Source: Phoronis australis
Lineage: Eukaryota; Animalia; Phoronida
Assembly: GCA_002633005.1 (NCBI GenBank)
Contig: NMRA01000116.1
Location: 44,483-108,482 of the forward strand
Direction: 5' to 3'
Length of the DNA stretch: 64,000 nt
Position 1 is the stretch's first letter. Each line of letters begins with the position of its first letter. Made by a program: the position numbers and the translations under genes. Shown piece by piece: positions 1-61,881 of this stretch. The notes under the pieces are model-generated. The model did no database searches. It saw only the letters and a program-made list of their open reading frames with translations, and had not been told where the DNA came from.

Positions 1-366
1 TGGAAGTTTTACCTTAAAGAAGTTGCGTTCTTGAGAATCTGCCCGCCTTTGTGTCACACTAAGTGACTGAAAGTTAGTCTCCCTATCCCAGGATTTGAAA
101 AAAATCGTTACTTTAGGTTTTTTGAGTGCTGCACATGATTTAAATTCTCTGAGTTTCAAGCAACTTCCAAGACTTTTGATTCGTATAGTCCAAGTTCATA
201 TTGGTCATTACAGCCATAACCTTGTAAGTAGGACTATCTGCCCTGGGTATGAGTTTCCTCAGTTCAAACTAAGGTCAAAGGTCAAGGTCATCGACATCTA
301 TTGTTAGTCACTCTCTCCAAGACTCATTGGGGAGTGCAGCAGCTCACTGTCCTTTGATAATTTCAG

Positions 367-4951
<4,585 letters not shown>

Positions 4952-13164: not shown

Positions 13165-16100
13165 TCATTCTTCTTTTTCTATAAAAGGCAGTTTACCATT
13201 ACTATAGTAGTCGTAGGGTGTGCTTGTGTATCTTATAACATACTCCGGGTAATATTGCCTATTTTCGAATATCACAAAAATATAGGGATCTACCATTTGA
13301 TTGACAACACTGTCGTACAGCAAGGAACCTTTCTCAGAACCAACGGGTGGCGGTCTCTTCATACCCCGCTCACCCTTTGTGAACTTACCCACGACCACAC
13401 TACACACAAACATGTCAAACTGTTTGTTACTCTCTATACCAGGTCGAGGTGGTGGAATGCAAGATGTGTCCACCTTCTTTGTGTCTGTATAATGAAAACT
13501 AGGACATCCATCTGGCAGGACACTGGGCGGTACTTGCGAAGAACCAAGACCAGGCTCGACATCAACTTGAGGAAAAGGCCAGCCAAAATAGTATTGAGTG
13601 ACGGAGACCCCGGTACGTCCGAGTAGCTGCTTGGCTCCAGAGTCAGCCGCAATAACATTTGCCTCAGGAGGAGTTGGGGTACATCTTACCTCAGAAGCTG
13701 AAAAGTAGAGGAATGGAAGTCAGCTATTAGCTTAGATTGAATACCCGGCCTCATGCTATTAAGCTTACAGAATTCATGTGACAATAATGGTGTCCTAATT
13801 TATGCTCAATAAGTAAAGGAAATCAGTAATTGAATTAGAAAACACATAAATGTCTTTATACAGCAGGTGATATACATCCGTCTGTACATCCACACAAATG
13901 TGCAGAAACAATGGTAACAATGTCTATATCAGACATCGGTACCAACCAATTGTACGTAAACAACATCATTTCAACCGTATTCGAGCATATTTTGTGTGCA
14001 GAAAAGTCAGACATTAGAAAGATGTTTATGATCGACATATGTCCCGAATAAAGATAAATGATACGTGCATCGCAAGCTCGTTACCAGAGATGGAAAGGAG
14101 ACAGAGGTAGGCGATATAAGGTCATTTATTATGACTATTACAATTACAATAACGTATAATAGGTAATCTATGGTAAGATGGGTAATAAAAAGCGCCGGCC
14201 ACGTGGAAGTACGAGAGACTGACGAAAACTGGGAGGAAGAGGGTGGGAAAATTGAACTTAGTTATGATGTACGACAATGTGGCCGGAACAAGGTGAACTG
14301 AAAGAGAGGTTACAATAACAAAGAAAAACGCCCCTAAAGACATGTGACAATCGTCAGCCTATAAGAGCCAAGAGCTGACCAAACTCGAGGCACGTGATAA
14401 CAGCAGACCGCACTGCGAAGGCTGGGAGGCGACGTGTAGTCCTGCACAAAGGAATAATGGAATAGACCGAGATGATGGGGAAAAGGAGTAAGACGAGTCC
14501 ATATGCTCACATAAATATATTTAACGAGTGAAATACCATTTACTTTAAGGTCATTATAAACCAGAATCGTTGAATATATGAAATGCTGTAAAGAAAGCAC
14601 TAACAAGCCAGGAGTAACACAACACAAGTGGTCAAAGCAACATGACACCTGGACAGGTTAGACCAGCAAAAAGATCAAGAAAGCCATGTATATGAAACTT
14701 GCTAGTCAATGCCCTCAGTCAGCAACCAGGATGAGACTCCTAGTAGCCCTTCTTATGGAATTAAGACATATGAGTATATAAAAGTATAAGAATATAAAAA
14801 AATTCTTCAAGAAGAGTAGTAAAAAAATTAGCGAAATTTTGCACCAATTTTTTTGACTAATTGTGAAAATAATTTACGGTTACTTTCATCTACTTTTTGG
14901 AAATCTACTGAAATTAAACTTCCTCAATGGTCTAATGATTGTGTGCTGGAATGACAACTGACCAAGGTCAATGGTTCAAACCTATCCTTACCGGAAGAAA
15001 AACGAAAAAATCCGAAAAAATGCTGATCGTTGACCACAATGAGTATACCAGATACTTGAGCTCGACCTTCTATGAATGCCTGTAACACCTGAATAGGGCT
15101 GCACAAATTATCAACGAAACAAAATGTATGTCATGCCAATCAATCCATGTAAACATACTAGAGGTTAAAAAATAGATCAACAAATTTCTGAAGTTGACCA
15201 AACTTACGCTAAGCAACCTCCTGATAATGTTGACCTTGTGTCTGCAAAATATAACCAAGTATGTTTGTATTGAGATACTGCGGTGGTGTTTTAAGTACAC
15301 GAACCTTGGAGTTTACTGTTCTTTGAGCTATAGCTGTGAGAGTAACACGCATAACTGGCAAAGTAGGTTCCTGAAAATATTATAGAACACATTAGCGGAG
15401 TCGCAAAGTCTTGGTCCTACTAAAGTATGGCATACTGTCCAGTGAAATATACTTTTACAGATCAGTTTTGCCCACAAGCAGGGCTTGACAAAAAAGAGGA
15501 AATTTTTACAGCCCTAAATACACATTTCAATCTAAACCATACCTCAACAGATCGAAAGTAAATATTAGTATCACAAGATCATGTTACTGTGTCGTGTTGG
15601 CAAAACGCACTCATCTTAAGCAGTACCTGACATCTATTTCAGCAACAACAATGATGGCAATTAGATGCAACAAAAGATATTTTTTAAAATAAAAATAATA
15701 AAGATAATGATGAAAAAATTGAAATGTGAGTGGCAGGAGCTTATTCTTGATTTGCTGCAGGGAGACCTACAAAATTATAATTACGATACAAAATTACAAA
15801 AAATTGAAAATCGATCCATAGATTATCTAGAAAGCCTGAAATACATACACATTTAATTCCAACAAACAATTTAATTTCAACGCAAATGGAAAAAAGTCAA
15901 AACGAAAACCTGTGGCTCATACCCCAACTGTTAGCATGGAAAAATGAAAGTCAAAAATAACATACTTTAAACTATAGAATGCATTAATCACAATCCTAAG
16001 TTGGCCAAACTTTTCAGTTTCAAACAGTACTTACAGGAGATAATTGTTCATACGCCACGCTGGTGTAGAAGAAACTATATGACAAGAAATAACTACCAAG

Positions 16101-20100: not shown

Positions 20101-23100
20101 TTTCAAAATATATGTTTAGTTTCAATACCTAGTACACAAAAATGGTTGGAGACAGTTATCAATGGCTTACCTCCACACGTATGTAGTCTCACACCTGTAT
20201 CAACTTGTGAATCATAATTTATATAATCTCATCCAAAGTCTTCCTAACTTTCACATTATGGATCTATCAGTACACATATGTGTTACTGGTGGTCCTGAGT
20301 TCAGTGAAATGTTACAGTAACTACCAATGAAAATTTCCGACGTCAATGAAGAGCAATATTAGAAACTTAGCACTTCCCTGTCCGTGTCTCTCGTGAATTG
20401 ATGTGTACACAGATAGTGGCGGACAGAGCCTCTTGATATCAGGAACACTAATCTAGCTTCTTTTGTGTGGAGCAGGACAATTACTGGATTAGTGGTAACT
20501 TCAGGACAATAAATACTGGCTAAAACGGTTGATTTTTCAACCTATTCAACTTCTGAAATTGAATTTTCGCGTGAAAAGCTTTGAATCCTTTTTCTGAAGT
20601 ACAATAAATATTAGCCAAAAACAATAGCATCATTTATGTTTTGTTGACCAAGGGATGTGTGTACCTTAACGTAATCATATGCGTTTTCTCACATTTAACA
20701 AGTTTTAATAATGAACACAACACTTGCTAATCAAGTTTAGTAGGTTTCCTTTGAATTGAAATTCTTTTTCTATTCACTATACAAATAGCGCAGACAACGA
20801 ACTATGGAGACCTTTTATGCAGTTGAACACCGAAGTTACAGAAGAGCCCCATATTCACGTGATTGTCAACAGTATGTAACCAGTCACTGCCTCTATGCTG
20901 AGTATGCGTAAACACAGATTTAAGTTAGCACAATGGACGTCAGAGAGATGAAGTCGTTTCTCAGAGTACAAAATAAGGAAGTCACCAAACAAGTGGAACG
21001 AGCAGTCCGCTGAAACCACAAGCCAACAACCTTTCAAGAAGAATCATATTTTGGGAGAACAAAACACTGAACTTGACAGCATATCCAATTCTCGCAAGTA
21101 TTAGTATACAAACTTACGCGACATTAGAATATTTTCACTGGCAACTTTCACAAGCCTTGCAATCTTTCATGGAATTTGGTCCTGTGCCTACAAGTACTTT
21201 TCTAACGACTGAGGTGAACCATGAGAACCAAAATTCGATTCACAACATTCAGTTAAAAACCCTTGATACTCGTTGATGAAAGCAGTTCCACTGGGCTTTG
21301 GTATGCGGAGTAAATAATTAGATTGACTTGTGAGCTTAAACAATAGATTGTGAGAATACTTCACAACAGATCGGGTTGTTATCTGATCTTGGAATTAAAA
21401 CCACTTCTGTCTGGAGTTGAAACTGTATAGAGGAATTATTTGTCTTAAATTACCAGGGAGGGTGAAAATGTAATACGTGTAGGAACTATTTTACTCCCTC
21501 ACCTTCTTGGTGGGATCTTTGGTCTCCCAGTGGCTAGGCATATCTGGTATACCTCCACACTGGCTGTGACTCCCACCATCATCGGCTATGTATTCCTCTT
21601 TACAGTAACGGCATGTAGACTGAAACAGAACATGAATTAGATGGCTGAGGGGAGACAACTTTTGCTTCACTGTAGTGTTACAGTATTCAACATGTCCGAT
21701 ACTACACAACCACGGCTTCTAATCAGCTTGTTTCTTGCACACCTAGTTTAGATTACTGATCAACTGACAGTAATCAACACTGTTTTGGTGCTAAAACACT
21801 TATTAAATGTGAATGCTGAGTTAGGACATACAGACAACCGATAACTTGACCAAAGGAGTTAACAGACAAACTTACCAAATTAGTGGACTTAATCCTACAC
21901 TCCGATCAGATGTGGAATATCTTTTTGAAAATTAGAAAAATATGATGTTGGACGCATAAACATGTATTGTTGTCCACTGCGACAAAGTATCTCGTAGATT
22001 ATGCTAGTGTATTATAGACATTAGGACACTTTTCAAGCCCGTGTTTTTAGTGTTATAGCTGATTTGAGAATTTTGAAATTAGCGACAGCTTCAATATCCG
22101 TAAAATTACGCTGCTAAATAATATGCTTTTGTAATTCACGCTAGCCCATAATACTTGTGAAGTAACCAACATAATTTATTTGGTGGATTTACTGGGTACA
22201 CTTTCCTTGAGTGGACCACTTACCACATCTACGCCGTTATTGAAACGTCTACATCGAGCAACCAACGAATGTGCAAACACAAAAATAAATCAAGTAGCAA
22301 TGTCTATTTGTAATAATACATTTGTTTATCGTCTTATAATAATAGTGTACTAAGTTTTGATCCAATCTTGTGAAACAATGTCACTACAATTTGACGACAG
22401 CACGTTCAAGGACATGAAAAAAGTTAATTTTGCATGTATTGACAATGAATTATAGATTAAGTTTCAAATAACTTGACAACTATACGTTGCAATGGAAACT
22501 AATAGCACACTTTTGTAAGCTGTTACGAGATTTATTCACATCCCAAGTTTAAAAAGGCCGTTGACGAATGTCGGAGTTATGACACAATAAATCTATAAGT
22601 AAAAGAATGGCCATGAGAAAATCTCGAATGACACTTGAATGGTAAGTCATAGAGAGAAATAGACAACGCACAGGACACCATGAGCTACCAAAAGTCCCGT
22701 TGTGCCTACAGTGCTTTGCTACGTTACAGTGACCTGTTAGAATTTGGATCACATATGTCAAATGCTCAACTGTCAAGATTTCGAAGGTTATTTACTTGTT
22801 GATCATAATGAGAAAGTTCTGCTTGGCTTGTTTACAAGATTTTTAAGTCCCGGTCAACAGCCTCCCGACTACCTCTTAAACGAAGTTGACCCGTGAAGTT
22901 CATTGGACCAAGAGCGCACCAAGTTAACCCGTGAGCCTCATTTTGGCTGAGAGCATACCAAGTTGACCCGTGAACCTCATTTTGGCCGAGAGCGTACCAA
23001 GTTGACCTGTGAGGCTCATTTTGGCCAACAGCATAGTTACCAAGTTGACCCGTGAGGCTCATTTTGGTTGAGAGCGTACCAAGTTGACCCGTGAGGCTCA

Positions 23101-26100
23101 TTTTGGCGGAGAGCGTACCAAGTTGACCCTTGAGGCTCATTTTGGCTGAGAGCGTACCAAGTTGCGAACACTCATATGTAACATATAAGGATAGCAGGAG
23201 GTACATTGTGCAAAACACTTGCTTCTATTTCTAATAGTCTGTTTGCATTATCACCCATAAATGTCTACATAAGCTTTGGCCTATTAGCAGTTCTCTCCAC
23301 TACAAAGCTTTTTAAGCTCAATACACAAGCATCAACATAGTGTGAGATGGCCCTTGGTTGGTACAGTTGGAATGAAGGTCACTAAATAAGGTTTGAGATA
23401 AGTCATGCACCTTTAAACATTTCACAACTTCAAACACATTTCGTAAAAAAATATTTAACATTGTGGTAATGCTATGTGTTTGACATGTACGTCTGGATCG
23501 TGAACACGAGAAAGACACCAATTAATACACATACTTCAAATAAACTCTTAGTCTGCAGTTTATTTTGTGCCACTGAACCGAGGAAGCAAAGGGAAGACTT
23601 TTTGCGAGTTTCAATTCTCTTGTAGGCAGACTGGAATGCATGAACTTTGCACTGCTTAAACATTCAAGTGACTGTAAATACCTTTCCGCATTTAAAGCAA
23701 TTCATCACCTTCTCACCACCATGTACAGGCACCATCACACCACAGCAAGGGCATCTGTGAAAATAGAAACACAGGTGTCACACACGACGTTCACAAATAT
23801 TTAATAGTATAGTACGGTGGTACCAATACTGATAGTTCTCCTACTCATGTGGTCATTCCTTACGTCCAGGGCCTGTCTGACCGCCTCACCTGGACATTTA
23901 AACAGTTTGACATTTCTATTATTAATTCTCTCCGCAGCCAACTGGTTAATGTCAAAAAAGACCCCCAAAGTTAATAAATCTTGTGTTGTCTAAGATGTCA
24001 GGTGTAAGGATCCCCAGTGCTCAGACAGTTACATAGGTGAAACGAAACAGTCCATTAAAATGCGTACGTCACAACATCGTCGTCCTAGTTACGGGGACAC
24101 TTATGATCGGCTATTTTTAGCCACCTGTGCGCCACTAGACATGATTTCTATACCGACGATGTCACTATCCTAGACTGTGAGGAAGACTGGTTTAAAAGGC
24201 GTGAAAAAGAAGCTCTCCATGAGCGCATTGAGAGTCGCTCCCTCTTTAAATAAAAGAGGTGGTTTACGATTCGATTTGTCACACGTATGGGATGGTGTAC
24301 TGACGTCAATGCCGCGCCGTTTAGCCAAAACGCCACCAATTGGCCAGTTTAATGATAACGTTACAAGCCAAACTGAAGTCCGTGAGATGCGAACGCAACG
24401 TCGCTAATTTTTGTAAGTTTTTTATTCCAGTATTAGACTCAAGCTTGATCTACATTCCAAGAAACTGAGTTACGTTCATGTTTGACTTAAGTTTAAGATT
24501 TGTCTCAACTTCTATTTCAAAAACTTTCATATCCGGTAAGGTAGTCAAAATTTAGACAAAACTTAAGCCAAAGACTTAAGACAAGCTTGAAATCTCTTTC
24601 TTGAAACAAACTTGAGATTTTATCTTAAAATTGGCTGAAATTTAAGATTTGTCTTAGCTAAGTCAGTTTTCTTGGAATCAGCCCCATGTCACTAAGTTAC
24701 CAACACGTCGCTCCATAAACGTTAAGCTGTGAGATCTACTTACACAAGTACGCCTTCCCTTTTCTCAAATTCCTTTACAGAGTCTTCTAACATACGTTCA
24801 TGAATAGCGTCATAAGTAACTGGTTCCAGAATCTTTTTTAATTCAGCTGTAATGGTAATTAATACCTTTGCTGTGTGTTGGCTCGAGAACATTATAGAGC
24901 AGGCACCTTGTATTGTCAGGGTATACTAGTTTGACTGTAAAAATGCCTTTCATTTAGACCACTAAGTGTTAATGACATTGCTCTTAAATTGTTCCTTCAT
25001 CAAATTAAATATGACAGACTTCGAAGGAACTGACATTCATTACTGCTCAAAGTAATGCTCTACAATTTGGCTTGTCACAACATATGAAAGTGAGAATATC
25101 GTAATTGGACAGGGTATATACAGAAACAAGAGAAACGCGGAGTGTTAAAATGCATGCACCCACGAATGCACTGCAGATGGTGTGGTTCTAGGGGAGTTTA
25201 TTTGTATCACAAAAATGGCCACTAGATGGTGCAAAATACGTTGAATCCATCCGAAAACGGTAAAATGCCATCGTTTCTTCAATAGAAAGCTTTTACCTAA
25301 TTTCCTAAAAATCTGTGACAGTCAAGAAACAAAGGAAAACCAAAAAATGAAGTTGTCACTAGAGGGCACAATGTTCATCCGATTCGTCTCAAAGCCATCG
25401 CCATCATCGTCCCTTGTCAACTTCATATAAATACAGTTGCCAATGTTCCAATAAAGATCCTGTAGAGTATTTAGGAAACACAGCTATTTGGCCACAAAAA
25501 ACAAGACTGACACTATGAGGCGCCACAGTAGTTAAAGTCATTGTAAAATCATGGTCAACTGTCCTCTTCACACTAAGAACATATATGCCAATTTTCACAA
25601 TCATCCTTAGAATGCATTGGTTCATAGACGGGCGGACGCCAAAAACAGACTACAAAATGATAAAAATGGCTGCTAGATCGCGCAAAATATGTTGAATCCA
25701 TCTGAAAACAGGTACATTTCTACGTTTTTTAATCAAAAGTTGTTTATTACATTTCATAAAAATCCGTAAAAGACTTTCAGAGAAACAGAGGAAAACTGAA
25801 AAAATAAAATTGCCACTAGGGGGCACAGCGTTCGTAGGATCCGTCTGAAAAACAGACTCGAAAACAGCAAAAATGGCCACTAGATGGCGCAAAATACCTC
25901 AAATCCATCTGTAAACAAGAGGATAGTGTCATCTCACCAATAGATGCCTATAATCCAAGCTTTATGAATATCCGTTGAAAACCTTTGAAGATACAGAGGT
26001 AAAAAAATTGCCTCTAGGGGACACAACGATAGCCAAATCCATCCAAAAGTCATCGTCAACTGTTGTAAATTTTATATCAATTGCTAAATTTAGTAAATAT

Positions 26101-29100
26101 CCTCCAGACTGTTTAGGAGAATTACAGCTATGGGCGCAAAAAACAAAACTGCCACAAGGAGGTGCCACAGTGGTCAAAGTCGTCCGAAAATCATCATGAG
26201 CCGTCCTCTTTATAATAACAAATCAGTATAGTTCAGTAGTTACTAAAAGCCTTTCATTTACACAAACTTCGTTAAATACACAACTAGACTTTTTATTAGC
26301 GAGCTTGATACAGGTACCTTTGTAATTTCAAAATAGTCTCCTTTCTTCTGGTGTGCAGATATGAAGTAAAAGACCGAGAGACATAACAAACAAACAAATA
26401 AAAACAGTACCTATATTTCGAGACTTCATGTCACATCATCAGGCAATGACTGGATTGAACATACACATAGCGAAATAAATAGCGAAATCCACGTGACAGC
26501 GAGAAGAAGGGCATACAAGCAGAGCCCTTATGAAAAAGCTTCAGGAAATTCTAATCCCGAAAGCCAGTGAGAATCTCACTGGATTCCAGTTAGATTCCAG
26601 TGAGAATCTAACTAATTAAGATGCCATTTAAATTAGTGAGAAAAAAATTCTCACTCTAGTGAGAATACAGTGATATTCCAGTTAGAATTCAGTGAGAATC
26701 TAACTAATTTGCATAGCATTCCCACTCAGTGAGAATTTGTCTTACTGAAATTCTCACTCAATAGGAATGCTATGCAAATTAGTGAGAATTTGTGTTAATG
26801 AAATTCTCACTGAAAATCTCACTGGGTGAGAATTTTGAACTTAGAAAATTTTGTGTGCCTTTTCAGCCACTGACTGAATAGAATCGAGATCAAACCTTTT
26901 TGGTAACCAAAACACTGCTTATTTTTGTGAGTTTATCTTGAACTTTGACTAAGGATACAATTTAATAATTGCTAATTGTGAAATATAGCAGACATAAAAT
27001 AATAACTATAATGCCTTTGGTGAATCAGCAAAATACTGAAAACTCAGCTGTCAACATGCACAGAATGAAGACATCAGCCTAATACTGGTGCTTCATGCAC
27101 TCTACTACATGTATGAAATGTACTAACCTTAAGCTTATTAACACGCAAAATCAGTCCAGGATCACCTGTGGTTGACTTGCAGACAAACTGTTCAGTAATT
27201 TCAGAATATTTGTGAGAAAAACATCAACAATCTTCAAGCTATTTCTCCAACTGCTCATTCCTGACGCCATTTTAGTTTGAATTCAGAAATCTGGTTCAAC
27301 TGAAATTTCTACAGTTACAGCCAATCAGGGTGTTTGTTTATCTCAGATTCTCACTGAATTCTCACTCCAATTTTGGCAAGTCCAAATTCTCACTCAATTC
27401 TCACTCAGATTTTTCCTAAGTCTGAAATTCTCACTGATTCTCACTCAGAATTTTTCTAAGACCAAAATTCTCACTGGATTCTCACTGTTACATAACATTT
27501 TCTCACTCATTCTCACTGACTGCCCCTGTTGTTCAATTCCCACTGGGTTCTCACTGGCATTTCTAACTATAATTGGTGATTTAGTGAGAATCTAACTGGA
27601 ATCTAACTGGAATCCAGTGAGATTCTCACTTTCTTTTTCGTATGGGAGAGTGTGAATGTAACACACGGTAGGAAGCCCGCAACCCTATCAAAACAGAGCC
27701 AGAGTGTGATGCACACCTGTGAGCAGTTCATTCAACACAGGTTTTTTGTGACTGATCAATAGCTATTCCAAAATCTTTAGCCGAAATATGTCATTTTCAA
27801 CATACCGAATGATGGTATTAACTACTATTTCTTGCCTACAGTATAGTTATATGTTCGTAACTCAGATATTTGTTAGACATCGTGCTTAAGAAGATTGTAA
27901 GGGATAACATTAAAGGAGAATGCCACCTGATTTAATTAGTCTTTTTTCCGTCTTAATCGGTCTATATATCCACATCACCTCTCATACGGTCGACCTTACC
28001 TTGCCGAGAGGTGTCGCGTTAACCTGTGAGGAAGGTGAGAAACGATGCATTGACGTCAGTGGTTCGTTTGCAGAGTGAATGCCGCTATGTTGCGGTGTAT
28101 CGTTCCCGCTTGTCCGAACTATGCAGCTGCGAGGAAAGTGGGTATATCGTTTTTTCGAATTCCTCAAGAGTCCGAAATGCTTATAGGAAGTGGCTCGCAG
28201 TAGTGAAGAATGAAAAGTACGCTGTAAATAGCAGTGCCTGACGAATGCCGGCTTACCAAACAACTATCAATACATTTCGTTGTCTGTCAGAGCTTGTTCA
28301 TGGTGCCTCTTTAGTATTTCTTCATCACTGTGTTCCTGTTCGAAATGAAATGTAACGATCCACCTGCGAAGTCTTCGTCCGGATGAGCCCTCGGTTGTCT
28401 AAGTTGGGATTGTAAGTTGCCATGTTGACGTTTATTACTGAGCGTTCTGTTTCAAAATGAATTATTCTCACCCTTACCAAGACTTATATTAAAACTGAAA
28501 CAAAGTCTGTCTCATTAGATGCAATTTGTAATGCCTTTGGAGTGTTCGAGAGTGCCAATGATTTGAGAAGCCAGCAATGAATAAATCACTGCGTTACCGG
28601 CTTTAGGTGCAATAAAACTAATTGACGGGACACCGAGGCCATGTGAGCTCATGCTAATTTAGTGTTTGATGGCAGAAACTGTTGTGAAACAACTCAATTT
28701 CTATCCCACAGTCAGGTGTTAGGGGAATCTTTATTTACATTTACATTATTCACATAATGATCGTCAATGCACAACTTGTGCCCTGACGGTTCTGTCTGGC
28801 CAAAGCGGAACCTGAATTCCGACGAGTAAGTAGATATGCAGTTTCATGGCTAATTCACCAAACATAATCATGTGCACTTTACTTCTTAGGCTCACTAGTA
28901 TAGTATTTTCTTGACTGTAAGTTTAGTTTCCAACTTTGGCTGGTTTATGTCCGTGATGTCTAATCGCTTTCCGAGCCATGATATGACTGGCCGGGATTAA
29001 ACGATCAGTCCAACCGCGACGGGCCTCAGATCGTGCTCCGAGCCACTGGCCACGATACAAGCGTTTTGAACTAAAAAATCACAAGTCTAAACAACACAAA

Positions 29101-35100: not shown

Positions 35101-35182
35101 TGGGCAGTGCAGACGACAAACTTAAAATTCAAGAGTGAGGCACTACATGAGCAACAGACCAATCGGCTTGTAGTTGCAGACT
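13165..35182 (-). CDS. RING-IBR-PARP coding region, either a separate gene or the C-terminal continuation of prominin B. Exons: 35040-35182, 30653-30734, 24744-24846, 23682-23754, 21503-21619, 17003-17139, 16458-16612, 15305-15370, 13165-13697 (stop TGA)
   Basis: All nine exons join in phase. The 30734 acceptor is an uncommon GAG after a pyrimidine tract. Translation: SATTSRLVCCSCSASLLNFKFVVCTAHHKICSNCMTNTVKKALKSKK...ECPLKGCHKWIPLAELKKILEPVTYDAIHERMLEDSVKEFEKREGVLVCPCCGVMVPVHGGEKVMNCFKCGKSTCRYCKEEY...HSQC..DMPSHWE...SPEYKKVATMF...IERVENPELWRLY...LFHGT...VYGQGTYFAS...MFVCSVVVG...RPPP...LYDSVVN...IFVIFENRQYYPEYVIRY. Confidence 0.88.
16697..16723. repeat. (CAA)n microsatellite
   Basis: Directly visible. 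Confidence 0.9.
17220..17379. mobile_element. Small Tc1/mariner-type MITE
   Basis: TIR TATCGTAAACGTTCGGGTTAACGCCC versus GGGCGTTAACCCGAAAGTTTACGGTA, with TA ends. A decayed relative lies near 4140-4300. Confidence 0.7.
18201..18712. mobile_element. Harbinger/PIF-like MITE
   Basis: TIR AGGGCCTTTCATA versus TATGAAAGGGCCT, flanks TAT/TAA, and internal repeated CAGTATGAAC subterminal motifs. Confidence 0.65.
21503..35182 (-). CDS. RING1 (C3HC4, RNF216/TRIAD3-like) plus IBR zinc-binding exons
   Basis: Pattern CxxC-x11-C-x3-H-x2-C-x2-C...C-x4-C, then a helical linker, then CPxC...CxxC-x4-CxxC...H-x2-C. Spacing and context resemble, from my recall, the RING1-IBR part of RBR ligases such as RNF216. 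Confidence 0.75.
22880..23165. repeat. 39-bp minisatellite, about 7 copies
   Basis: Unit approximately CCAAGTTGACCCGTGAGGCTCATTTTGGCTGAGAGCGTA. Confidence 0.92.
23845..24345 (+). mobile_element. Penelope-like retroelement remnant (linker plus GIY-YIG endonuclease, disrupted)
   Basis: Translates across frameshifts and a stop to VVIPYVQGLSDRL...SLRSQLVNVK..CVV*DVRCKDPQCSDSYIGETKQSIKMRTSQHRR...AIFSHL...VTILDCEEDWFKRREKEAL...PSLNKRGGLRFDLSHVWDGVL, typical of Penelope C-termini. Confidence 0.85.
25123..26215 (+). mobile_element. 5' part of a HINE-like (non-autonomous Helentron) element with CCACTAG core repeats; probable 3' end at about 29660-29731
   Basis: Begins AAACAAGAGAAACGCGGAGTGTT, like the copies at 30796 and 31815. 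Contains diverged core units. A matching 3' end (GACGG microsatellite, hairpin, GCATAAAAA) lies at about 29670-29731. Confidence 0.65.
26555..27646. mobile_element. Foldback-like MITE built from ATTCTCACT/AGTGAGAAT motifs
   Basis: 36-bp exact inverted repeat (AGTGAGAATCTCACTGGATTCCAGTTAGATTCCAGT at 26566; reverse complement ending 27630), many internal 9-bp motif copies, and CCC.../...GGG-type ends. Confidence 0.75.
27914..29525 (+). mobile_element. Kolobok-like non-autonomous DNA transposon, copy 1
   Basis: TTAA|AGGAGAATGCCACC ... GGTGGCATGCTCCT|TTAA. A second copy lies in inverted orientation at 57712-59395. Confidence 0.8.
30796..34318 (+). mobile_element. Nested HINE-like elements: outer about 30796-34318, inner about 31815-33807, with internal tandem units of about 450 bp
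   Basis: 5' AAACAAGAGC..ATGCGCCCAC, tandem core (equivalent positions 32521, 32971, 33423), (GGAC)n microsatellite, and 3' hairpin ATGCGTCCACATATAAATATGTGGGCGCAT followed by an A-run. The inner copy interrupts the host unit at an A-run. Confidence 0.75.
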
Positions 35183-48600: not shown

Positions 48601-51600
48601 CACTCATGTACAGAATATAAAACACCTCCAACAGATAATACCAAGGTGTTCTAGATGATATCTAACATTATAAACACATTGAGTTGTTCAAACATTCAGA
48701 TTATTACAGATTATAGATGAAACACCTCAGTTCTACTTTACCTGCGAATAATCGAGCACCTTTTTAACGTCAAACAAGCTGGAGACAGAGAGCACTTTAT
48801 ACGCAGGTTCATTGTTCTTACAGCCCCTGGAAGTGACAACAAACATGAGATGAGACAAACACATTTAATGTCTTTGAGCTATTCTTTTGGTGATCAACTG
48901 ATTACTACATCGGAAACTGTCTATAGATTATAGTAGGCCTACTTGATGTGTCAATATAACTATACTTTTAAGATACTTAAAAGTATCTTGAACACACCAA
49001 TCAGAACATTATACGGTAGGAACAGAGAAAGCACTCAAAGCCGTGTAGGCCCAAGTTGTTACAATTTCTCAACTCTAGAGCACCAACATGCACAGGCTGA
49101 GTATGCACACCACATGCACACCAACATGCACACCACATGCACACCAGCATGTACACCAGCATGCACACCACATGCACACCACATGCACATCACGTGCACA
49201 CCAGCATGTACACCAACATGTACACCAGGATGCACACCAGCACGCACACCAGCATGCACGCCCAAGGACACTCATCTCAAGCCAACCAACTCCTCTCCTA
49301 ATCACCACTAAATTCACCCCATCAACCACTCCTCGTTGATAGCACTTCCTATTTGCGTGTGACGGAGGTACAAGGGTCTCATGGACCCCCGTTCATTGCA
49401 AAAAAGACCTCCCTACTCAAACCTCATTTCAGTTTTGTGCATGGATCCTCTATTCACTGCAAAGTGCATCCAGGTTGTCATTCATTTCGATCCCTCTCGA
49501 CAATTTTGTGGTTGTCCCTCTCCCCTGTTAAATACTTCTGGCTACGTCAGTGCCACTTCCTCTATTTTTTCTGCCATTGTTTTACAGTGGTATAACACTC
49601 AGGGGAAGCAATAAAAAACATGTTACACTGCTGAACATTGAACAGTTCAGAACACACATTATTGATCATTCAGCACATAGATTAGCTGTTTCACTATGGC
49701 CAATATTTGTCCAAATAGGAAAAGGGCTTAAGTCAGAGTATGCCTCAATTACAGACTTTGATTGCAGTCTTAGCGAATTTAATATCAGGTATAGATTCAA
49801 GTCTGAGACAATTTTTGGTTAATATGCACGAACTCAGTTTTCTTCTTGTTGCCGACAGGAAAGATTAGCCCCAGGGAAAAAGAGTAAAATAACAGATATA
49901 GACCAATCCCTCTGGCATATTAGGTCATATGGACCTCGGGAGAGCAGCGTTGCCTTTGGCATCTGACGCAGCATTGCTCTGCCTTGACCCATAACCTCGC
50001 GATGGGTTCATATTATTATTGCATTTCTAAATGGAAACCATCACAACTGTACTCACTGCAACACTCCGGAGAATGTCAGGTTGATGTTGCTGTTTTGTAG
50101 AACAAATCCTGCAAGGGGATAGCCAGGTCCTATAAGGCTATTTGCCGGACCATCAAACAACTACAAACATAAGAAAAACAGTGCATGGATTTATGATTCA
50201 AAAGAACACGGCAGTAACGTACGGAGTCTCACCAGAGAGGACAGGACCTAGGAGCAGGTAGGTAGCGAACGGAGAGGGGGTGGGAAGGGGTGGGAGATGG
50301 TGGGAGGATGGAAGGTTTGGAAGGAAGGAGGGGGAGGGATCAGGTAGTGACTGACAAATAAAGAAATCAGAAGTAGCAACTGCCTCTGTATTTCCACAGT
50401 GTCAGCCACTTAAAATAAGCTGTCCCCTGATAATTTGTGTCACTTCCCAGAACTGGTTGCATTACACCCTTTTCCCACTGACCACAACTGTTCAATCGGT
50501 TGGCAAATAACCAAGTTGGCTGGTTGACTGATGTAGCCATGAGTATCTCATTCACGACTGATTAACTCCATCCAGGTATTTATGGTTGGAGTGGCAGCTT
50601 TCTTTTGTGAGATAATTGTTCTAATCTCTGTTAAGATCATACCTATAAGCCTGACTGTTATAAGTAAAAGATATATAAGCTGTTTGAACATAAAACAGTA
50701 ACAAGTCTGAATTCCTCAGCTCGTCAAATGATGATCGTGTTTAGTTTTTGAATCACTAAAATTGTCCAATTACAACCAAAGTTACAACAATTAATCTATT
50801 CTATCCGATCGCATTACCAATTAAAGCACTGCATGGATTTGATTGTTCATACGAGGTCGGCAATAGGGTGCAACCACTCTTTATACTTTTCATAACATTT
50901 ATGATACACATGCAATTCTCACGTCTGGTCCCGACCAATACATTGTTTTTAGCAGGATATGCGACGATATTAGGCCTCATATGTTGGTTTTATTTAGTTA
51001 CGCAGCATTACTATCATGGTCACATGGTTGTTATATGCTACAATTTTCATGCGCAATTAGCCTAATTACTCAAAAATGTTAAGATGTGTTCGGATGTGGA
51101 TATATAGCTAACTTTCATTTTATTTCCATCAAAATGCAGGCATTCACGCTCATAGGACCAGATAGAACCGGCTGCTGGGATCTGTTTCTCAGTGATGCGT
51201 TGGGTAAATCCACAACTGGTGACGCTTAGATGACAAAACTTCTTTCAAAAACGAGCGGGTGAAGCAATACTGAAATAACCAGCTCGAGAGCACATTAATT
51301 TGACTTCTTGGAATTAATAACAATTGCTTGAGTTCACTCCGAACTGAAGCTAAGTTTTTCATGTAACAAGTCCCAATGCCAATAAAATGCTTATTGACAA
51401 ACTGAGAACACATGACCTCAGCTACCATCACTTATTCATTGCTGCTCTTGAAAATCTTGAGTTAATGGGTGTCGAAAGTAATATAACTGCTAATGGTTTC
51501 AAACCTTTTGAAGCCTGGATTAAGTGACCTGCGTGATGTCATACCAGACAAAAGACTGCACTCAGCAGTTAACACTGAAAGGAGCCAGATGTTTCACATT

Positions 51601-54600
51601 TATAACCGCCATAAGTCTGGTCAAGTCATTGAATGGGAGAATGCCCTAATGGTCATCAAAACCAACAGCGAGGTGCCTCAAGTCAATGTGGACACATTGC
51701 ACTTGGAGCTTTGTCAGGTTCATGCGACATAACTGTGTGTAATAGGCAGCATACAGCAAAGTTGTTTGGAATAAAAATCAACCCTAAATATCTTGTAAAC
51801 CTTCATTAAAACAATTTCAACCATGCTTAAAACATTTAGACCAGCCTCAGCTTTAACTTTGTTAGATTTATCCCATGATGGCTCAACTTTTTNAAAGATA
51901 TATAAGCTGTTTGAACATAAAACAGTAACAAGTCTGAATTCCTCAGCTCGTCAATGATGATCGTGTTTAGTTTTTGAATCACTAAAATTGTCCAATTACA
52001 ACCAAAGTTACAACAATTAATCTATTCTATCCGATCGCATTACCAATTAAAGCACTGAATGGATTTGATTGTTCATACGAGGTCGGCAATAGGGTGCAAC
52101 CACTCTTTATACTTTTCATAACATTATGATACACATGCAATTCTCACGTCTGGTCCGGACCAATACATTGTTTTTAGCAGGATATGCGACGATATTAGGC
52201 CTCATATGTTGGTTTTATTTAGTTACGCAGCATTACTATCATGGTCACATGGTTGTTATATGCTACAATTTTCATGCGCAATTGGCCTAATTACTCAAAA
52301 ATGTTAAGATGTGTTCGGATGTGGATATATAGCTAACTTTCATTTTATTCCCATCAAAATGCAGGCATTCACGCTCATAGGACCAGATAGAACCGGCTGC
52401 TGGGATCTGTTTCTCAGTGATGCGTTGGGTAAATCCACAACTGGTGACGCTTAGCCACATGACAAAACTTCTTTCAAAAACGAGCGGGTGAAGCAATACT
52501 GAAATAACGAGCTCGAGAGCACATTAACTTGACTTCTTGGAATTAATAACAATTGCTTGAGTTCACTCCGAACTGAAGCTAAGTTTTTCATGTAACAAGT
52601 CCCAATGCCGATAAAATGCTTATTGACAAACTGAGAACACATGACCTCAGCTACCATCACTTATTCATTGCTGCTCTTGAAAATCTTGAGTTAATGGGTG
52701 TCGAAAGTAATATAACTGCTAATGGTTTCAAACCTTTTGAAGCCTGGATTAAGTGACCTGCGTGATGTCATACCAGACAAAAGACTGCACTCAGCAGTTA
52801 ACACTGAAAGGAGCCAGATGTTTCACATTTATAACCGCCATAAGTCTGGTCAAGTCATTGAATGGGAGAATGCCCTAATGGTCATCAAAACCAACAGCGA
52901 GGTGCCTCAAGTCAATGTGGACACATTGCACTTGGAGCTTTGTCAGGTTCATGCAACATAACTGTGTGTAATAGGCAGCATACAGCAAAGTTGTTTGGAA
53001 TAAAAATCAACCCTAAATATCTTGTAAACCTTCATTAAAACAATTTCAACCATGCTTAAAACATTTAGACCAGCCTCAGCTTTAACTTTGTTAGATTTAT
53101 CCCATGATGGCTCAACTTTTTGTCAAAACCAAATTTTTATGTGAGCACATTTAAAATATGGGCACTGCAGAGAAAGCATCTACTGAGAAGTCTACCATGA
53201 CCACGTTACAACAAACTTCATAATCAGTGATCAGGATTGCTCTGAAATCCAGCAAGTCTAAGAAATAACAACTAGAGTCCCTTTTATCTAATATTAACTT
53301 TTCGATATGATGCAGAATAATCAGCCATTCACCTACCTCTTTGTAGATTTTGAACGAGGGGTCTGTCAGAGGCACACAAGCAAACTTCTCCACAACCGTA
53401 CCCGACGCAAAGATTATAGTAGTTAGAAGCATGAGCCAGGGACCAAATATGAACATAAAACCAACGGAGCTGCAAGGAAAATCAACATACTTGAAACACA
53501 ATGTGTATTGATGCGTACTTCATTTTGTAAAGAATAATGTCCAACAGAAAACAACAGTCGAATAATGGTATCTCATAATTTAGGCACTCAGTGGGTTTCT
53601 TACCCACTGTCTACAAATGTGTTTTATGAATAGCCATAAAGACCAACTTTCCCCCCAAATGACTATCACAATCTTATCTAGATTGGAAGTCAGACCCTAT
53701 TTGTCATTTTATAAAGCACGTCCGATTTTGCAAAGATGTTATTCGACTCGTGATGGCAGTGGGTTGATTCAGCTCACATGACGGTGCTGCAACCAAGTCA
53801 GATACAAGTCAGAGTTCGCATAAGCAGCCGCGGATGTTACATACATGGCATGAACTTTATTCTGTCCCAAATTGTTCAAATAAAATTAGTTCACACGTCA
53901 GAGCAATAGATTAATGGAGATGCAAATAGTTCTCTCTTTCATTATTAATTACTGAGCAGTGAATTCAAGCGGATTAGGTGACAAAACTGAGTAGTGTGGA
54001 GGCCATCATCCGGGCAGCTGCCAGCGACAGTATGCTCAGGGACTTTATTGATGCTGTTAATGTTTGCTTTGATTTTGAGCAGTAACTATATGTCCCTGCC
54101 TGGGTCCGGTCTTCAGCTACCTTAGTTCTATTACTAGGAAAAGAAACCAGAGTAATTGACTGAACCGCACTTCATGAAAATATTTTGAACTGCTATGTCA
54201 TTTAATACATTACATTGCATAAAATAACAAATTATACAATGATTGAATAATAATGTATGCCGGTCTGAGGATGTGGTAGGATAACTTTCCGTATGAATAA
54301 AGCTATTTTTGCTGGATGAAAACAGTGAATTTCAAAATTATTAAAATAATTAGATTTTTGAGGTAGTATAGATAAAATATAATAACACTTATTCTATAAT
54401 TCTCTGTAACTTTCAGTTTCTGTGAATAGAGAGAAAAGTCCGTTAGCAACCCAGAGATTGCTTCAACCTTCCACAGACAGGTCATGAGATGTTATGAAAG
54501 ATTTTTCATTGACTTGACTCTATATCATCATTGGTGATGGTTATGTTGACATGGGCCAAATGAATCATGACCAGCACTAAGATGACATGTATATGCCATC

Positions 54601-57600: not shown

Positions 57601-60600
57601 GAGCCGAATTGTGTGTTTTCCGCTTCAGCAAGAGAGAGGTCTGTTTGCTAATTAAGGTAACTTGATGACAAAGCAACCGTGTGACCACAGTAGCATTTTG
57701 AATGTCTTTAAAGAAGCATGCCACCCAAAAAACAACCTAATTTGTATCAATTTACATCGAGTAGTTCTACTCAATAACGACACGTACGGTTGCGTTACCT
57801 GACACCTGACGGCAGACGGAGGTGTTGAAATTATATCCAATGTCATCGGTTTCACACTCAGTCTGTTCAGCAGTTAACAACACAGGTTACTGGTGCTAGC
57901 TTATCGCTTGAAGTCATCGTTTAACACCAATAAATCATCAAACTTCGATGTAAAACCCTTAAAAATACACCGAGTTCTTATAAAAACAGGTTGTTTTATT
58001 TCGCTCTTACGGATTTATTGGTATTTGGACACACCGTAGCCTACAAAGTTCGGCAGGCCAATGTCCGTAGCAGGAGTTTGGGGTCTGTTCAGAGTTAATT
58101 TCGAAGTATTTTCTGTGAGATACAGACAGGAGAACCTAGATCTGTGTTGTTTATACTTGTGATTTTTTTAGTTCTAAACACAAAACGCTCGTTATCCTGG
58201 CCAGTGGCTCGGAGCCCGATCAGGCCCGTCGCGGCCGGCCGGATTGACGCGTAATTATCCCGGCCAGTGGCTCGGAAACTGATCAGACATCACGAACATA
58301 AACCAGCCAAAGTTCAGTGGAACTAAACTTCCAGTCAAGAAAATACTATACTAGTGAGTCAAAGTATGTGCACGTGATTATGTTGCCGATTAGCCACGAA
58401 ACTGCAAATCAACTTAATCGTCGGGAGCCCCGAATTCAGGTTCCGCTTTTGGCCACAGCACGGTCAGGGCACAAGTTGTACATTGACTATCATTATTTGA
58501 GTAATGTAAATGTAAATAAAGATTCCCCTAACACCTGGCCGTGGGATGGAAATCGAGTTGTTTCACAACAGTTTCTGCCAGCAAACACTAAATTAGCATG
58601 AGCTGACATGGCCTCGGTGTCCCGTCAATTAGTTTTATTGCACCTAAAGCCGGTAACGCAGTGATTTATTCATTCCTGGCTTCTCAAACCATTTGCGCTC
58701 ACGAACACTCCAAAGGCATTACAAATTGCATCTAATGAGGCAGACTTTGTTTCAGTTTTATATAAGTATTGGTTAGGGTGAGAATAATTCATTTTGAAAC
58801 AGAACGCACAGTAATAAACGCCAACATGGCAACTCGCAGGCCCGACTTAGGACGAGCTAGAGCTCATCAGTCCCGACTTCGCAGGTGGATCGTTAAGTTT
58901 TACAGGCTATCAATTCGGACAGGAATACAGTGATGAAGAAATACTAGAGAGGCGCCGTGAACAAGCTCAGACAACGGAACGCATGGAGTTATTTGGTAAG
59001 CCGGCATTCGTCATGGGCACTTTCGACGTCTGCAGGCCATAGAGACGGAGATGTTTCGTGGCCTCATACTTGCTATTTACAGTGTACATTTCATTCTTCA
59101 CTACCATGAGCCACTTCCTAAGCATTTCGGACACTCGAGGAAGTAAAAAAAAAAACGATATACCCGCTTTCCTCGCAGCTGCTTAGTTCGGACAAGTGGG
59201 AACGATGCATCGCAACATAGCGGCATTCACTCTGCATATGAACCACTGACGTCGCTAGCATCGTTTCTCACGTTCCTCACAGGTTAATTAACGCGACACC
59301 TCTTGGCAAGGTAAGGTCGACCGTATGCGAGGCGATGTGGATATAGACCGATTAAGACAGCAAAAAAGACAAAGTAAATCGGGTGGCATTCTCCTTGAAC
59401 ATTTTAAGAAAAGTTAGTAGTATGACAATTAACACCTTTCCAGCTTTATAGGGCAACTTGTTTAGGATAGGATATCTCAGCACTCTGAGCGGTAAGCAAC
59501 TGTTAAAGAATCATGGAACATGACTTTTCATTGATTAACACTAACAAAGACAAAACATTGAGAAATACATTATAGTGCCGCTTGTGGCTGCTCAACAATA
59601 TGAATGGACTAAATCGATGGATTTCACAAACATAATTACATTCTGTAACTCATGTAAGATGACAATTATCATCACAATGATTCGTTACATTTCCAGCTAA
59701 TATCCAAACCATAGGCTTATGGCAAACAACCAAACTGAGGCATACACATTTCTGTGACAGCCATCATCTTTTTACAAGGTCAGTCTGCTGTACAGGTAGC
59801 ACTTATGTGATCGAGGGTATCAACGAGGTCAGCTAGATTGAACTGTCTTTGTTACATCTGACCGATAAGGAAGGCCTGCCTTGCCTTCTCCAAAAGCTCC
59901 GCCTACTTTTTAAGTCATCTTAGACAGTAAGACTTAGCCTCTGGACTGACAAATCTTTGTTCGCTACGTACTATTGATAGACTTCCTGTCAATCAAATTA
60001 CTCCCTCAACAAACAAGATTGGAGTTGAGGAAAGCTACTTAAAGCGATAAAAGCAACTATAGTCCATATCTTAAAAAATCTGGATTGAAGCTTAATCAGC
60101 GACTTTGGTTTGCATCCTGTTAGTTCCAGATACCCTTAATTAACAGGTATCATCTCGCTAAAATACTCAAATCATGCCATCATTTTTCTAATTCATCATC
60201 GTTTGGGTGCAACAAACAGCCCAGGTGGAAACGATTTTCTGGCCGCATCTCTAAATTCCAGCTTCAAACCCCTAAACCCCTGCCCTGGATTAGCAAATAC
60301 CAAGCCTGCAGCACAAATTCCACACTTACGTACCTAAAAACTCCACACACTACAATTGGTGACCAACCAACTCCATACTCATAAGAGATCAATCTCCAGT
60401 CCTGGACCATGGGTCAGCAGGTAAGAAGTTTGTACTGTGAGTTTCCGTGTTTGCTGATCTGTGACTGAAGGTTAGGGGTTCAAAGCTGCTGGGAATTTAG
60501 AGGCGTGGCCACCAACATGTTCCCACTCCAACTTTAATGGAAAATGTCAACACGGCAGTATCGTCATCGANTGCCATCATTTTTCTAATTTATCACCGTT

Positions 60601-61881
60601 TGGGTGCAACAAACAGCCCAGGTGGAAACGATTTTCTGGCCGCATCTCTAAATTCCAGCTTCAAACCCCTAAACCCCTGCCCCGGATTAGCAAATGCCAA
60701 GCCTGCAGCACAAATTCCACACTTGCGTACCTAAAACCTCCACACACTACAATTGGTGACCAACCAACTCCATACTCATAAGAGATCAATCTCCAGTCCT
60801 GGACCATGGGTCAGCAGGTAAGAAGTTTGTACTGTGAGTTTCCGTGTTTGCTGATCTGTGACTGAAGGTTAGGGGTTCAAAGCTGCTGGGAATTTAGAGG
60901 CGTGGCCACCAACATGTTCCCACTCCAACTTTAATGGAAAATGTCAACACGGCAGTATCGTCATCGAAATCTTGAAACATTAAAGTAGCCAAATCTTACA
61001 ATGGTGTTTGAAGCCAAAATATTACTTACGTTGGATTCGTTAAATGTAAGCGAAAGCGTTGACGAGTTAATGCCACAGTTGGGTGGTGGTCCCACTGGGC
61101 AATTCTGCAGGTTGGTCTCCAGGTTGGCTTTGACCGTGTTTACTTGGTAGTACAGATTATTGGATGACGTCACCAAGGCATTGTAAGAATTGCTCAATGT
61201 ATTCTCGAGGTGTTCTAGATTGTTACCTGCAAATATGGAAGTATCTCTACAACAGTTGAAAACTTAAAAAGACGCAGTGATAGAGTCAGTATTACTAAAT
61301 TTCTCATATTTTTTGCAATTAGTAATGTTAGCACACAATACTCTTTATGATTAATTAAAAAAAAAACTCACAATTAAGAAATGTATTCTCTACTAAGGGT
61401 TCATTTAGCAACACTGAAATGCAACCATCATTTCAAGGCAATAGTTATTCATAAACGTTGTCACGGGCAATTTAACCGAACAATATTGTAAAATAAACGT
61501 CAATATATACAATACAAGGCAAAAGTATTCAGACAAAATGTGCCCAAATTTGTCGTCATAATGGCTCGGCAGAAGCCAAGTTTATAAGAAGAATAGTCTT
61601 ACCTCATGACTGAGAAAAAAGGTGAATAAACAGAAAAGTAAGGTGGCAAAGCGCAGTATTTTGTAATTTTGCAGCCCTAAAAATTATTTCCAGGTATTTT
61701 TGCTGCTAACAGAATTAGCCGTCATAATAGGGAAACATTAATTTGTCTGATTACTTTAGGCTTGTTGTATTTGTTCCCTGCTTACTTGATTCAAAACTAA
61801 TCAGGTTCTGTACGACATCCTTAACACCTCCAACTGTGGCCAGTTGATCTCTGACAGGCAGCCCAAGCAGGGTGTCAATAT
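36690..61881 (-). CDS. prom1: Prominin-family protein, paralog B, partial at 5'. Exons: 61786-61881, 61030-61226, 57336-57410, 56587-56650, 56115-56188, 55346-55569, 53337-53469, 50057-50160, 48742-48826, 47987-48124, 47040-47135, 45787-45900, 45437-45517, 44945-45013, 43593-43685, 42095-42243, 39727-39759 (weak acceptor), 37749-37778, 36690-36778 (linker)
   Basis: Continuous in-frame exon chain with canonical splice sites. It includes TM3 (IVINTLVVLTLGTVLMMVLGLIFGTLC), GGNCLMA/SVGFMFIFGPWLMLLTTIIFASG (TM4), GCKNNEPAYKVL, LNTDLGKCRPLWTVYEELTSTLLC and NCFWISFGCCLFFFTPSIIFSVKLAKHYRCMK (TM5). Exon sizes of 93, 149 and 30 nt equal those of paralog A. There are many N-x-S/T sequons in the loops. 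The symbol is family-level only. Confidence 0.88.
37268..37742. repeat. 28-bp minisatellite, about 17 copies
   Basis: Unit TATGAGTACATGTGAATTGATATCAACG. Confidence 0.95.
39420..39600. repeat. Dispersed repeat fragment; second copy at about 54770-54935
   Basis: Shared CCATGCCCATCTTGCAGAGTCTTA...TTTTACTCTGCAACATAG..GTGGCGTACCCCGGGCAAAATAGATTAC. Confidence 0.8.
40079..40460. mobile_element. Near-perfect palindromic element of about 380 bp (MITE-like)
   Basis: Arms include ATGACAGGCAAAAAATTGAATTTCATGCCTCAAAAGCGAGGCCTTCTATATTAATATAG and its reverse complement; centre near 40270. Confidence 0.85.
47369..47732 (+). mobile_element. hAT-like insertion (5' end CAGGGCTCGAC), truncated by an assembly N
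   Basis: It interrupts a sequence that reappears uninterrupted right after the N at 47733. Confidence 0.6.
48185..48350. repeat. Degenerate (CAT)n low-complexity tract
   Basis: Directly visible; source of His/Asp/Ile-rich spurious ORFs. Confidence 0.85.
49081..49262. repeat. 11-12 bp minisatellite (ACACCAGCATGC-like)
   Basis: Directly visible. Confidence 0.9.
50667..53121. repeat. Tandem duplication of about 1.23 kb joined by N at 51893 (probably uncollapsed haplotypes)
   Basis: Identical ORF translations 1229 bp apart (51493 and 52722), few SNPs/indels, and N exactly at the junction. Confidence 0.9.
54962..55094 (+). mobile_element. 3' end of a HINE-like element after an assembly N
   Basis: (GGAC)n plus the same hairpin end as 33700-33807. 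Confidence 0.8.
57712..59395 (-). mobile_element. Kolobok-like non-autonomous DNA transposon, copy 2 (inverted relative to 27914-29525)
   Basis: TTAA|AGAAGCATGCCACCC ... GGGTGGCATTCTCCT|TGAA. The interior aligns with copy 1 along most of its length. Confidence 0.8.
60172..60968. repeat. Tandem duplication of about 400 bp joined by N at 60571 (probable assembly/haplotype artefact)
   Basis: Two nearly identical blocks either side of the N. Confidence 0.88.

Follow-up and report, generated by a model that had tools for sequence, protein, structure and literature searches.

Prominins (PROM1/CD133 and relatives; Pfam PF05478) are membrane proteins of microvilli, cilia and vesicles; for PROM1, a location on protrusions and extracellular vesicles and the binding of cholesterol are known (PMC10967083, PMC11405016). 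The first of these papers, a 2024 review, describes the tail that follows the fifth transmembrane segment (TM5) as cytoplasmic and varied by small alternative exons, reports that in CD133 ubiquitination of the tail directs sorting into vesicles, and states that an enzymatic motif or domain is found in no prominin of any species (PMC10967083). Here we describe a prominin gene of the phoronid Phoronis australis, prominin B, that is spliced in RNA onto the first exons of a RING1-IBR-PARP module. It lies in a 64,000-nucleotide stretch of contig NMRA01000116.1 (positions 44,483 to 108,482), which is called the window below and whose own numbering is used throughout. We estimate at about two chances in three that the fused gene encodes one pentaspan protein with a predicted mono-ADP-ribosyltransferase as its cytoplasmic tail.

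How does this locus compare with the closest described systems? Prominin B has the TM3-TM4-large glycosylated loop-TM5 layout and conserved cysteines of the prominin family, as well as small cytoplasmic-tail exons of the kind that is alternatively spliced in prominins, but in place of a short non-enzymatic tail its model has one of 548 amino acids with zinc fingers and a PARP domain. The module in this tail resembles a family of soluble RING1(-IBR)-PARP proteins of molluscs and the brachiopod Lingula, with which it shares the spacing of the RING1 zinc ligands, the IBR, a PARP12-like domain that is interrupted by an insert at a common position, and the lack of a RING2; these relatives, however, have an N-terminus of 150-890 amino acids without a membrane segment where B has prominin. 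RNF216 (PDB 8EB0, 7M4M) has a homologous RING1-helix-IBR (a relation seen through the Lingula protein P0199), whereas B has a PARP domain instead of RING2 and Ser/Ser at the positions of C517 and Y519. The mono-ADP-ribosyltransferase (mono-ART) triad His and Ile of PARP12/ARTD12 and its relatives (TIPARP, ZAP, PARP15) align with those of B, but B has no CCCH or WWE domain, carries an insert of ~90 amino acids and has its membrane anchor in a multi-pass protein whose ectodomains are large. Known membrane-bound ADP-ribosyltransferases (ARTs), such as tail-anchored PARP16 and the glycosylphosphatidylinositol-anchored ecto-ARTCs, have topologies other than that of B.

Full-text literature searches, which did not cover subscription journals and beyond which supplementary domain tables could hold such architectures, found neither a report of a prominin-PARP fusion nor a description of the RING1-IBR-PARP family. 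The main text of a survey of prominins across eukaryotes, as available, contains neither the word 'fusion' nor the word 'PARP' (PMC11405016), and the available part of an account of 17 Aplysia PARPs mentions neither IBR nor prominin (PMC9334734). The prominin-PARP architecture was thus not found described; our own survey of prominins was narrow, so fusions in other animals are possible.

The prominin B gene model

The window is intron-rich animal DNA of ~39% GC. The prominin B model occupies its minus strand from 61881 to 13165 and consists of 28 exons in a single open frame, without the 5' end (Table 1). Every acceptor has AG and every donor GT, except for a GC option at 36665; the protein is 1120 amino acids long if the linker exon ends at 36666 and 1112 if it ends at 36690, both being in frame to the TGA at 13165. 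A blastp comparison aligns the model with residues 260-839 of Nematostella prominin-1-A (P0001) at 32% identity over 596 columns (E 5e-72). Pfam Prominin matches the TM3, TM4 and TM5 exons (E 1.4e-7 for TM3 and 1.1e-8 for TM5, with a further value of 1.8e-4), each under the whole-protein cut-off, and hydropathy gives three prominin TM segments at about residues 193-223, 240-270 and 542-573. The second large loop has 11 N-glycosylation sequons. The start of the gene is beyond the window, within which tblastn with P0001 found no upstream prominin exons of B, and we infer a signal peptide and TM1-2 there; of the five TM segments first proposed, TM3, TM4 and TM5 are thus present in the window itself.

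A paralog, prominin A, is encoded on the plus strand, so that the 3' ends of A and B face each other. By position the two genes have in common a 93-nt exon, a 149-nt TM5 exon (phase 0-2 in both) and two phase 2-2 micro-exons, the first 30 nt long in B and 27 nt in A, the second (NKxAP) 30 nt in both. They can be aligned as DNA only in the 93-nt and TM5 exons (80% identity, synonymous divergence dS 0.48 and nonsynonymous divergence dN 0.18 over 240 nt). Sensitive blastn of the A region (1-8000) against the window returned only these two shared coding exons at E<1e-3, with no counterpart of A's terminal exon and no remnant of A's introns in B. Identity between A and B reaches 95% (dS 0.12) in the initial 96 nt of the TM5 exon (1063-1158 versus 42243-42148), as against 74% in the preceding exon and 63% in the rest of the TM5 exon; gene conversion or strong constraint is a possible cause.

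RNA evidence for the prominin-to-RING splice

Does the transcript cross from prominin into the RING exons? We used three stranded raw RNA-seq runs (X2, X3 and X4) that carry the same species label and come from one study, and a set of contigs (X1) guessed to be RNA, in which 7% of the words searched for were present. About 18-19% of each raw run was read and mapped to 34960-42290 at 95% likeness; the sequences of runs X2-X4 are from this species or a very close one. Four joints, and no others, are listed in this range; all are on the strand of the transcript and all are predicted introns. They are as follows: TM5 to micro-exon 1 (38963/42095; 6 reads in X2 and 6 in X3), micro-exon 1 to micro-exon 2 (37778/38934; 8 and 4), micro-exon 2 to linker (36778/37749; 9 and 3) and linker to RING (35182/36666, GC-AG; 9 reads in X2, with 8 different starts and a short side of 72 letters, and 1 read in X3). 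None of the four was present in X4 or X1, and X1 has no contig on these exons at 95% and so is evidence neither way. Loose read ends that match the genome letter for letter extend the chain on both sides, from the RING exon to 30734 (12 X3 reads) and from exon 43593 to the TM5 exon at 42243 (8 X4 reads). Prominin B is thus confirmed to be spliced onto the RING module in RNA, as one transcript.

The preliminary description had proposed that the TM5 and NKxAP exons are equal in A and B, that A's last exon is missing from B, and that a phase-2 exon at 36778, a phase-1 RING exon and eight exons downstream of it keep the frame open to 13165; all of this holds in the model. The two junctions by which it was to be checked, 37749>36778 and 36666>35182, are present in two of the four data sets (X2 and X3), the second with the GC donor, and the reads that lead from TM5 to RING speak against prominin B transcripts that all end before 35182.

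In X2 the joint counts are flat from TM5 to RING (6/8/9/9), and sense-strand depth in the intron (35205-36674) is 0.47-1.27, compared with roughly 7-11 on the flanking exons (from bin depths). The fused form is therefore the dominant one in X2, where TM5-bearing B transcripts mostly continue into RING1, and the isoform that would end at the TAG at 36592 is minor or an unspliced precursor. The GT donor at 36689 was rejected as the main donor: no joint with it is listed, despite its score of 6.6 versus 5.6 for the GC donor (from a small matrix). The GC donor and a rare GAG acceptor (30735-30737) both flank the introns of the first RING exon, and both are used in reads.

A-type reads cross-map onto B's TM5 exon. 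The one exon-related joint listed in a mapping of 24700-43750 at 85% likeness, which was swamped by repeats, is 42248/43614; it has the letters of paralog A and was set aside as cross-mapping. Five single-base variants of B were read out of the reads; none creates a stop, and the pattern is that expected of alleles. Two nonsynonymous ones are in the linker exon, and at frequencies of at least 30% there are three amino-acid-changing variants in micro-exon 1 plus linker versus none in the RING exon (small numbers). At 42096-42098 all 12 reads that join TM5 to the micro-exon differ from the window at two of three bases, which changes two residues and is likely an allele.

The RING1-IBR-PARP module

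All eight zinc ligands of RING1 are present in B and in 38 of 38 aligned relatives, and all eight of the IBR in B and in the 12 relatives that keep this domain, six of which have a Pfam IBR match at E<0.01. The RING exon by itself shows RING-like features only weakly in an atlas look-up, and a PDB search with it was not significant; the RING1-IBR of Lingula P0199 matches human RNF216 (8EB0, residues 7-141 of a 277-amino-acid construct) with E 1.4e-18.

The preliminary description spoke of an E2-binding ubiquitin module. A RING1-IBR is indeed there, but a RING2 is not: the distance from the last IBR ligand to the start of the PARP region is about 10 residues or fewer. An RBR ligase was rejected, as the RING2 with its catalytic cysteine is absent and RBR chemistry is impossible for B as a result. 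In RBR enzymes RING1 keeps E2-ubiquitin in an open state from which ubiquitin is not discharged directly, so that transfer depends on RING2; ubiquitin also binds allosterically where RING1 and IBR meet (PMC9834252). The E2-face residues C517 and Y519 of RNF216 correspond to S667 and S669 in B; these positions are mostly polar in the relatives, none of which (0/38) has an aromatic residue at that of Y519. With Ser/Ser there, E2 binding by B appears doubtful, and a ubiquitin-sensing or scaffolding element would be the better guess.

PARP12 is the best PDB match for the catalytic domain of B, which is of the H-Y-I type with H895, Y928 and I1083 (model numbering). Y928 is within a GxGxYFA motif, whose tyrosine we take to be the triad tyrosine of the H-Y-I site. 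In 2PQF the counterparts of the His and Ile are positions 78 and 174, which lie 96 apart like H564 and I660 of PARP12; alanine mutants of the latter two are described as inactive (PMC5656619). Single B exons score below the cut-off of Pfam PARP. The insert puts 168 residues between the marker motifs of B, a distance that is 152 or more in 28 of the 29 measurable relatives and 76-80 in five measurable PARP12/TIPARP-like rows. Since RING1-IBR stands where PARP12 has its N-terminal CCCH and WWE domains, B is not a PARP12 ortholog by architecture. No stop or frameshift was found across the nine module exons. A poly-ADP-ribose polymerase was rejected because the third triad position is Ile, not Glu; the signature is that predicted for a PARP12-like mono-ART, in line with the mono-ADP-ribosylating domain of the preliminary description, and it is intact.

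Soluble relatives and origin of the fusion

Among 271 compared proteins, 38 match the RING-IBR part of B, 12 of these through the IBR, which the other 26 have lost; the prominin part is matched by P0001 only. No relative has a membrane segment (0/38 with a hydrophobic window >1.8) or prominin similarity (0/38). Those that are named come from bivalves, gastropods and Lingula. Among the members of the family are P0199 (Lingula LOC106178183), P0201 (Pecten), P0202 (Saccostrea, 'RNF216-like'), P0209, P0213 and P0226. Most of the family is annotated 'uncharacterized'. The closest module in this local set is that of P0199 (36% identity over B residues 665-940, E 1e-50), and its PARP domain matches PARP12.

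When 1.84 billion representatives were searched exhaustively with B's last exon, no close relative was found; there were 1515 PARP matches, with a best single-domain match of ~74 bits, and three of the best 150 extend into the RING region. With residues 612-1010 of P0118, one of these three, as the query, none of the best 120 of 1598 matches listed has a Pfam Prominin annotation. Word-indexed searches gave no match among 476 candidates for the last PARP exon and one among two candidates for the TM5 exon; they are insensitive and say little on absence.

A tree of B and 22 of the 38 relatives (23 rows) places B within the IBR-keeping clade with support of 100/99. A tree of the PARP core (27 of 39 intended rows, the others having failed a motif filter) gives B no firm position and a branch of 1.3. 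The sequences thus indicate that the RING-IBR-PARP part is a member of an existing soluble family, not a new domain assembly, and because B is in the IBR-keeping clade and has the common PARP insert, an existing soluble RING1-IBR-PARP gene is the probable donor. A tblastn search of the window with the N-termini of the 38 relatives found no 5' exons of such a donor, though this is a weak search with low-complexity regions. The fusion may have arisen as follows: an inverted prominin duplicate, without its last exon, would have landed upstream of the RING1 exon of the donor and taken the place of its long low-complexity N-terminus. The phase 2-2 micro-exon tail would have been an easy entry point, with the phase 2-1 linker exon bridging to the donor's phase-1 RING exon. 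Elsewhere among the compared proteins, PARP12-like catalytic domains occur in tandem, as sets of three or two, in P0002 (Ptychodera flava) and P0009.

Alternative explanations

Several points weigh against a single fused protein. The fused product is known from RNA and predicted from sequence, expression of B is low, and X2-X4 all come from the single study. RNA support ends at RING1 exon 2, the seven junctions from 30653 to 13697 being placed by their phases and by co-linear homologs; no single read or contig was seen to reach from prominin to PARP, and 16 loose-end rows exist beyond those used above. No close ortholog is among the 1.84 billion representatives, so that conservation of the fusion would be conjecture, and B is the longest branch of the family tree (1.75 versus a median of 0.38). 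The runs also differ: X3 has 1 read at the linker>RING joint versus 12 at the far side of the RING exon, and a bin depth of 0.91 at the linker versus 6.08 at RING, while X4 has a depth of 1.5 at RING and 2.51 at TM5 and none over the micro-exons or linker.

This coverage dip is what two overlapping genes would give, namely a soluble RING1-IBR-PARP gene whose transcript starts independently, near 35182 or further upstream, the prominin-linked mRNA being a tissue-dependent or read-through isoform. In-frame ATGs at 35240 and 35222 and the solubility of all 38 relatives fit as well. Against this, counts in X2 hardly vary from joint to joint, depth in X3 and X4 is zero in the bin that immediately precedes the RING exon (35205-35449), none of the other joints listed in the mapped range leads into 35182, and the search for donor 5' exons, weak as it was, came back empty. 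We regard overlapping genes as unlikely.

It is also improbable, in our judgement, that the fusion is transcribed and translated with an idle or decaying module that serves as a bulky tail or scaffold only. B's long branches in both trees, the missing RING2 and the loss of the RNF216 E2-face residues would suit such decay, and the branch length fits either adaptation or relaxation. Neither a zinc ligand (16 of 16 present) nor any of the H-Y-I positions has been lost, however, the nine module exons are open throughout, and the Y519-position aromatic is absent from the whole family and so is not a sign of decay in B.

An mRNA that joins prominin to RING1 and then ends, or leaves the frame, before the PARP exons, with PARP on another transcript, seems very unlikely. 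Two long introns (30652-24847, 5.8 kb, and 21502-17140, 4.4 kb) are outside the RNA-covered range, AATAAA hexamers are present in intron 35039-30735, and the donor at 15317 is the lowest-scoring one (1.9); but the relatives have RING1-IBR-PARP in one chain in the same order and with similar spacing, the phases fit at seven of seven junctions, and an in-frame alternative donor is available at 15305. An assembly error that juxtaposed unrelated exons is scarcely credible, since in spite of overlap artefacts in the window (see below) the joints in the RNA reads coincide with the predicted splice sites and no N lies between 45704 and the PARP stop.

Other features of the window

Table 1. Positions of the prominin A and B features in the window
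Feature	Positions	Strand	Remarks
Prominin A, 3' end	367-459, 1063-1211, 2218-2244, 2588-2617, 4696-4951	+	ordinary cytoplasmic tail
Prominin B, six exons	61881-61786, 61226-61030, 57410-57336, 56650-56587, 56188-56115, 55569-55346	-	second half of first large extracellular loop and TM3
Prominin B, nine exons	53469-53337 (TM4), 50160-50057, 48826-48742, 48124-47987, 47135-47040, 45900-45787, 45517-45437, 45013-44945, 43685-43593	-	TM4 and second large loop
B, TM5 exon	42243-42095	-	149 nt, phase 0-2; Pfam Prominin positions 771-799, E 1.1e-8
B, cytoplasmic micro-exon 1	38963-38934	-	30 nt, phase 2-2; RNA joints on both sides
B, cytoplasmic micro-exon 2 (NKxAP)	37778-37749	-	30 nt, phase 2-2; last B exon with a counterpart in A
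B, linker exon	36778-36666	-	113 nt, phase 2-1, Ser/Thr/acidic; GC donor 36665; RNA joints on both sides
B, RING1 exon 1	35182-35040	-	zinc ligands 1-6; RNA joint at 5' side
B, RING1 exon 2	30734-30653	-	zinc ligands 7-8; GAG acceptor; 12 X3 read ends match its first bases
B, three exons: RING1-IBR helix, IBR (8 ligands), start of PARP region	24846-24744, 23754-23682, 21619-21503	-	alignment to 12 IBR-bearing relatives; Pfam IBR in relatives
B, four exons: PARP12-like catalytic domain	17139-17003, 16612-16458, 15370-15317 or 15305, 13697-13165	-	stop 13167-13165
B, in-frame TAG	36594-36592	-	reached only on retention of intron 36665-35183; would end a short enzyme-free prominin isoform

In three intronic regions (47250-47852, 50667-53121 and 60175-60967) single N's at 47733, 51893 and 60571 are flanked on either side by copies, 98-99% identical, of stretches of 119, 1230 and 396 nt, respectively; these duplicates are likely artefacts of haplotype-overlap scaffolding. 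The introns of the RING1 region (25200-26200 and 30880-34260) hold many decayed copies of an interspersed or tandem repeat of ~450 nt, where RNA depth exceeds 1000 and is strand-biased, from cross-mapping copies. A 1.7-kb element occurs twice in B introns, at 27910-29529 and 57708-59399, in opposite orientations and with 83% identity between the copies, which have RNA reads on both strands; two open reading frames (ORFs) of this element that were tested have no Pfam match. Intronic tandem repeats are found at 780-959 (60 copies of GCT, in paralog A), 22883-23164 (7 copies of a 39-mer), 37293-37741 (16 copies of a 28-mer, directly after micro-exon 2) and 49103-49259 (12-mer repeats). Eight other long ORFs of the window have no Pfam match above cut-off. 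A 148-codon ORF at 63379-63822 on the minus strand, without a Pfam match, has a CSEHF motif reminiscent of the THAP zinc fingers of transposons.

Discussion

In prominin B, parts of two known kinds are joined in a fusion that is real, expressed and, it appears, lineage-specific. The preliminary description presented the whole architecture as new: for the joining to prominin this agrees with our literature searches, while the RING-IBR-PARP part turned out to have its soluble family. We infer that splicing continues to the PARP stop and that the mRNA is translated into a protein with five TMs, likely a lineage-specific, membrane-tethered mono-ART that is regulated through ubiquitin.

Such a protein might work as follows. 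The prominin part would send it to curved, cholesterol-rich protrusions and to the vesicles shed from these, where the PARP domain could put single ADP-ribose units, from cytosolic NAD+, on itself or on neighbouring membrane or trafficking proteins, with RING1-IBR most likely acting as a ubiquitin-sensing or scaffolding switch of the enzyme. As with enzymes of the PARP12 type, its likeliest role would be in defence or in the control of trafficking at the cell surface. More speculatively, and on balance we doubt it, it could be a receptor-like ADP-ribosyltransferase, in which the large glycosylated prominin loops, or prominin clustering on curved membrane, would sense an outside cue (such as a microbe or a membrane change) and activate a cytoplasmic mono-ART that is gated by ubiquitin and sits on microvilli, on cilia or on vesicles that are shed. 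If true, this would be a transmembrane signalling class with ADP-ribosylation as its output and a PARP in place of the RBR RING2.

The breadth of the finding is limited to one lineage so far, with low expression and a predicted function. For the PARP field, prominin B would be a multi-pass, ectodomain-bearing intracellular ART, and the soluble family, with its PARP at the place of RNF216's RING2, bears on the coupling of ubiquitin and ADP-ribose signals. Prominins themselves have no agreed molecular function; the prominin-PARP fusion gives a direct experimental handle on it, and ties the ubiquitin-controlled trafficking tail of prominin to ADP-ribosylation.

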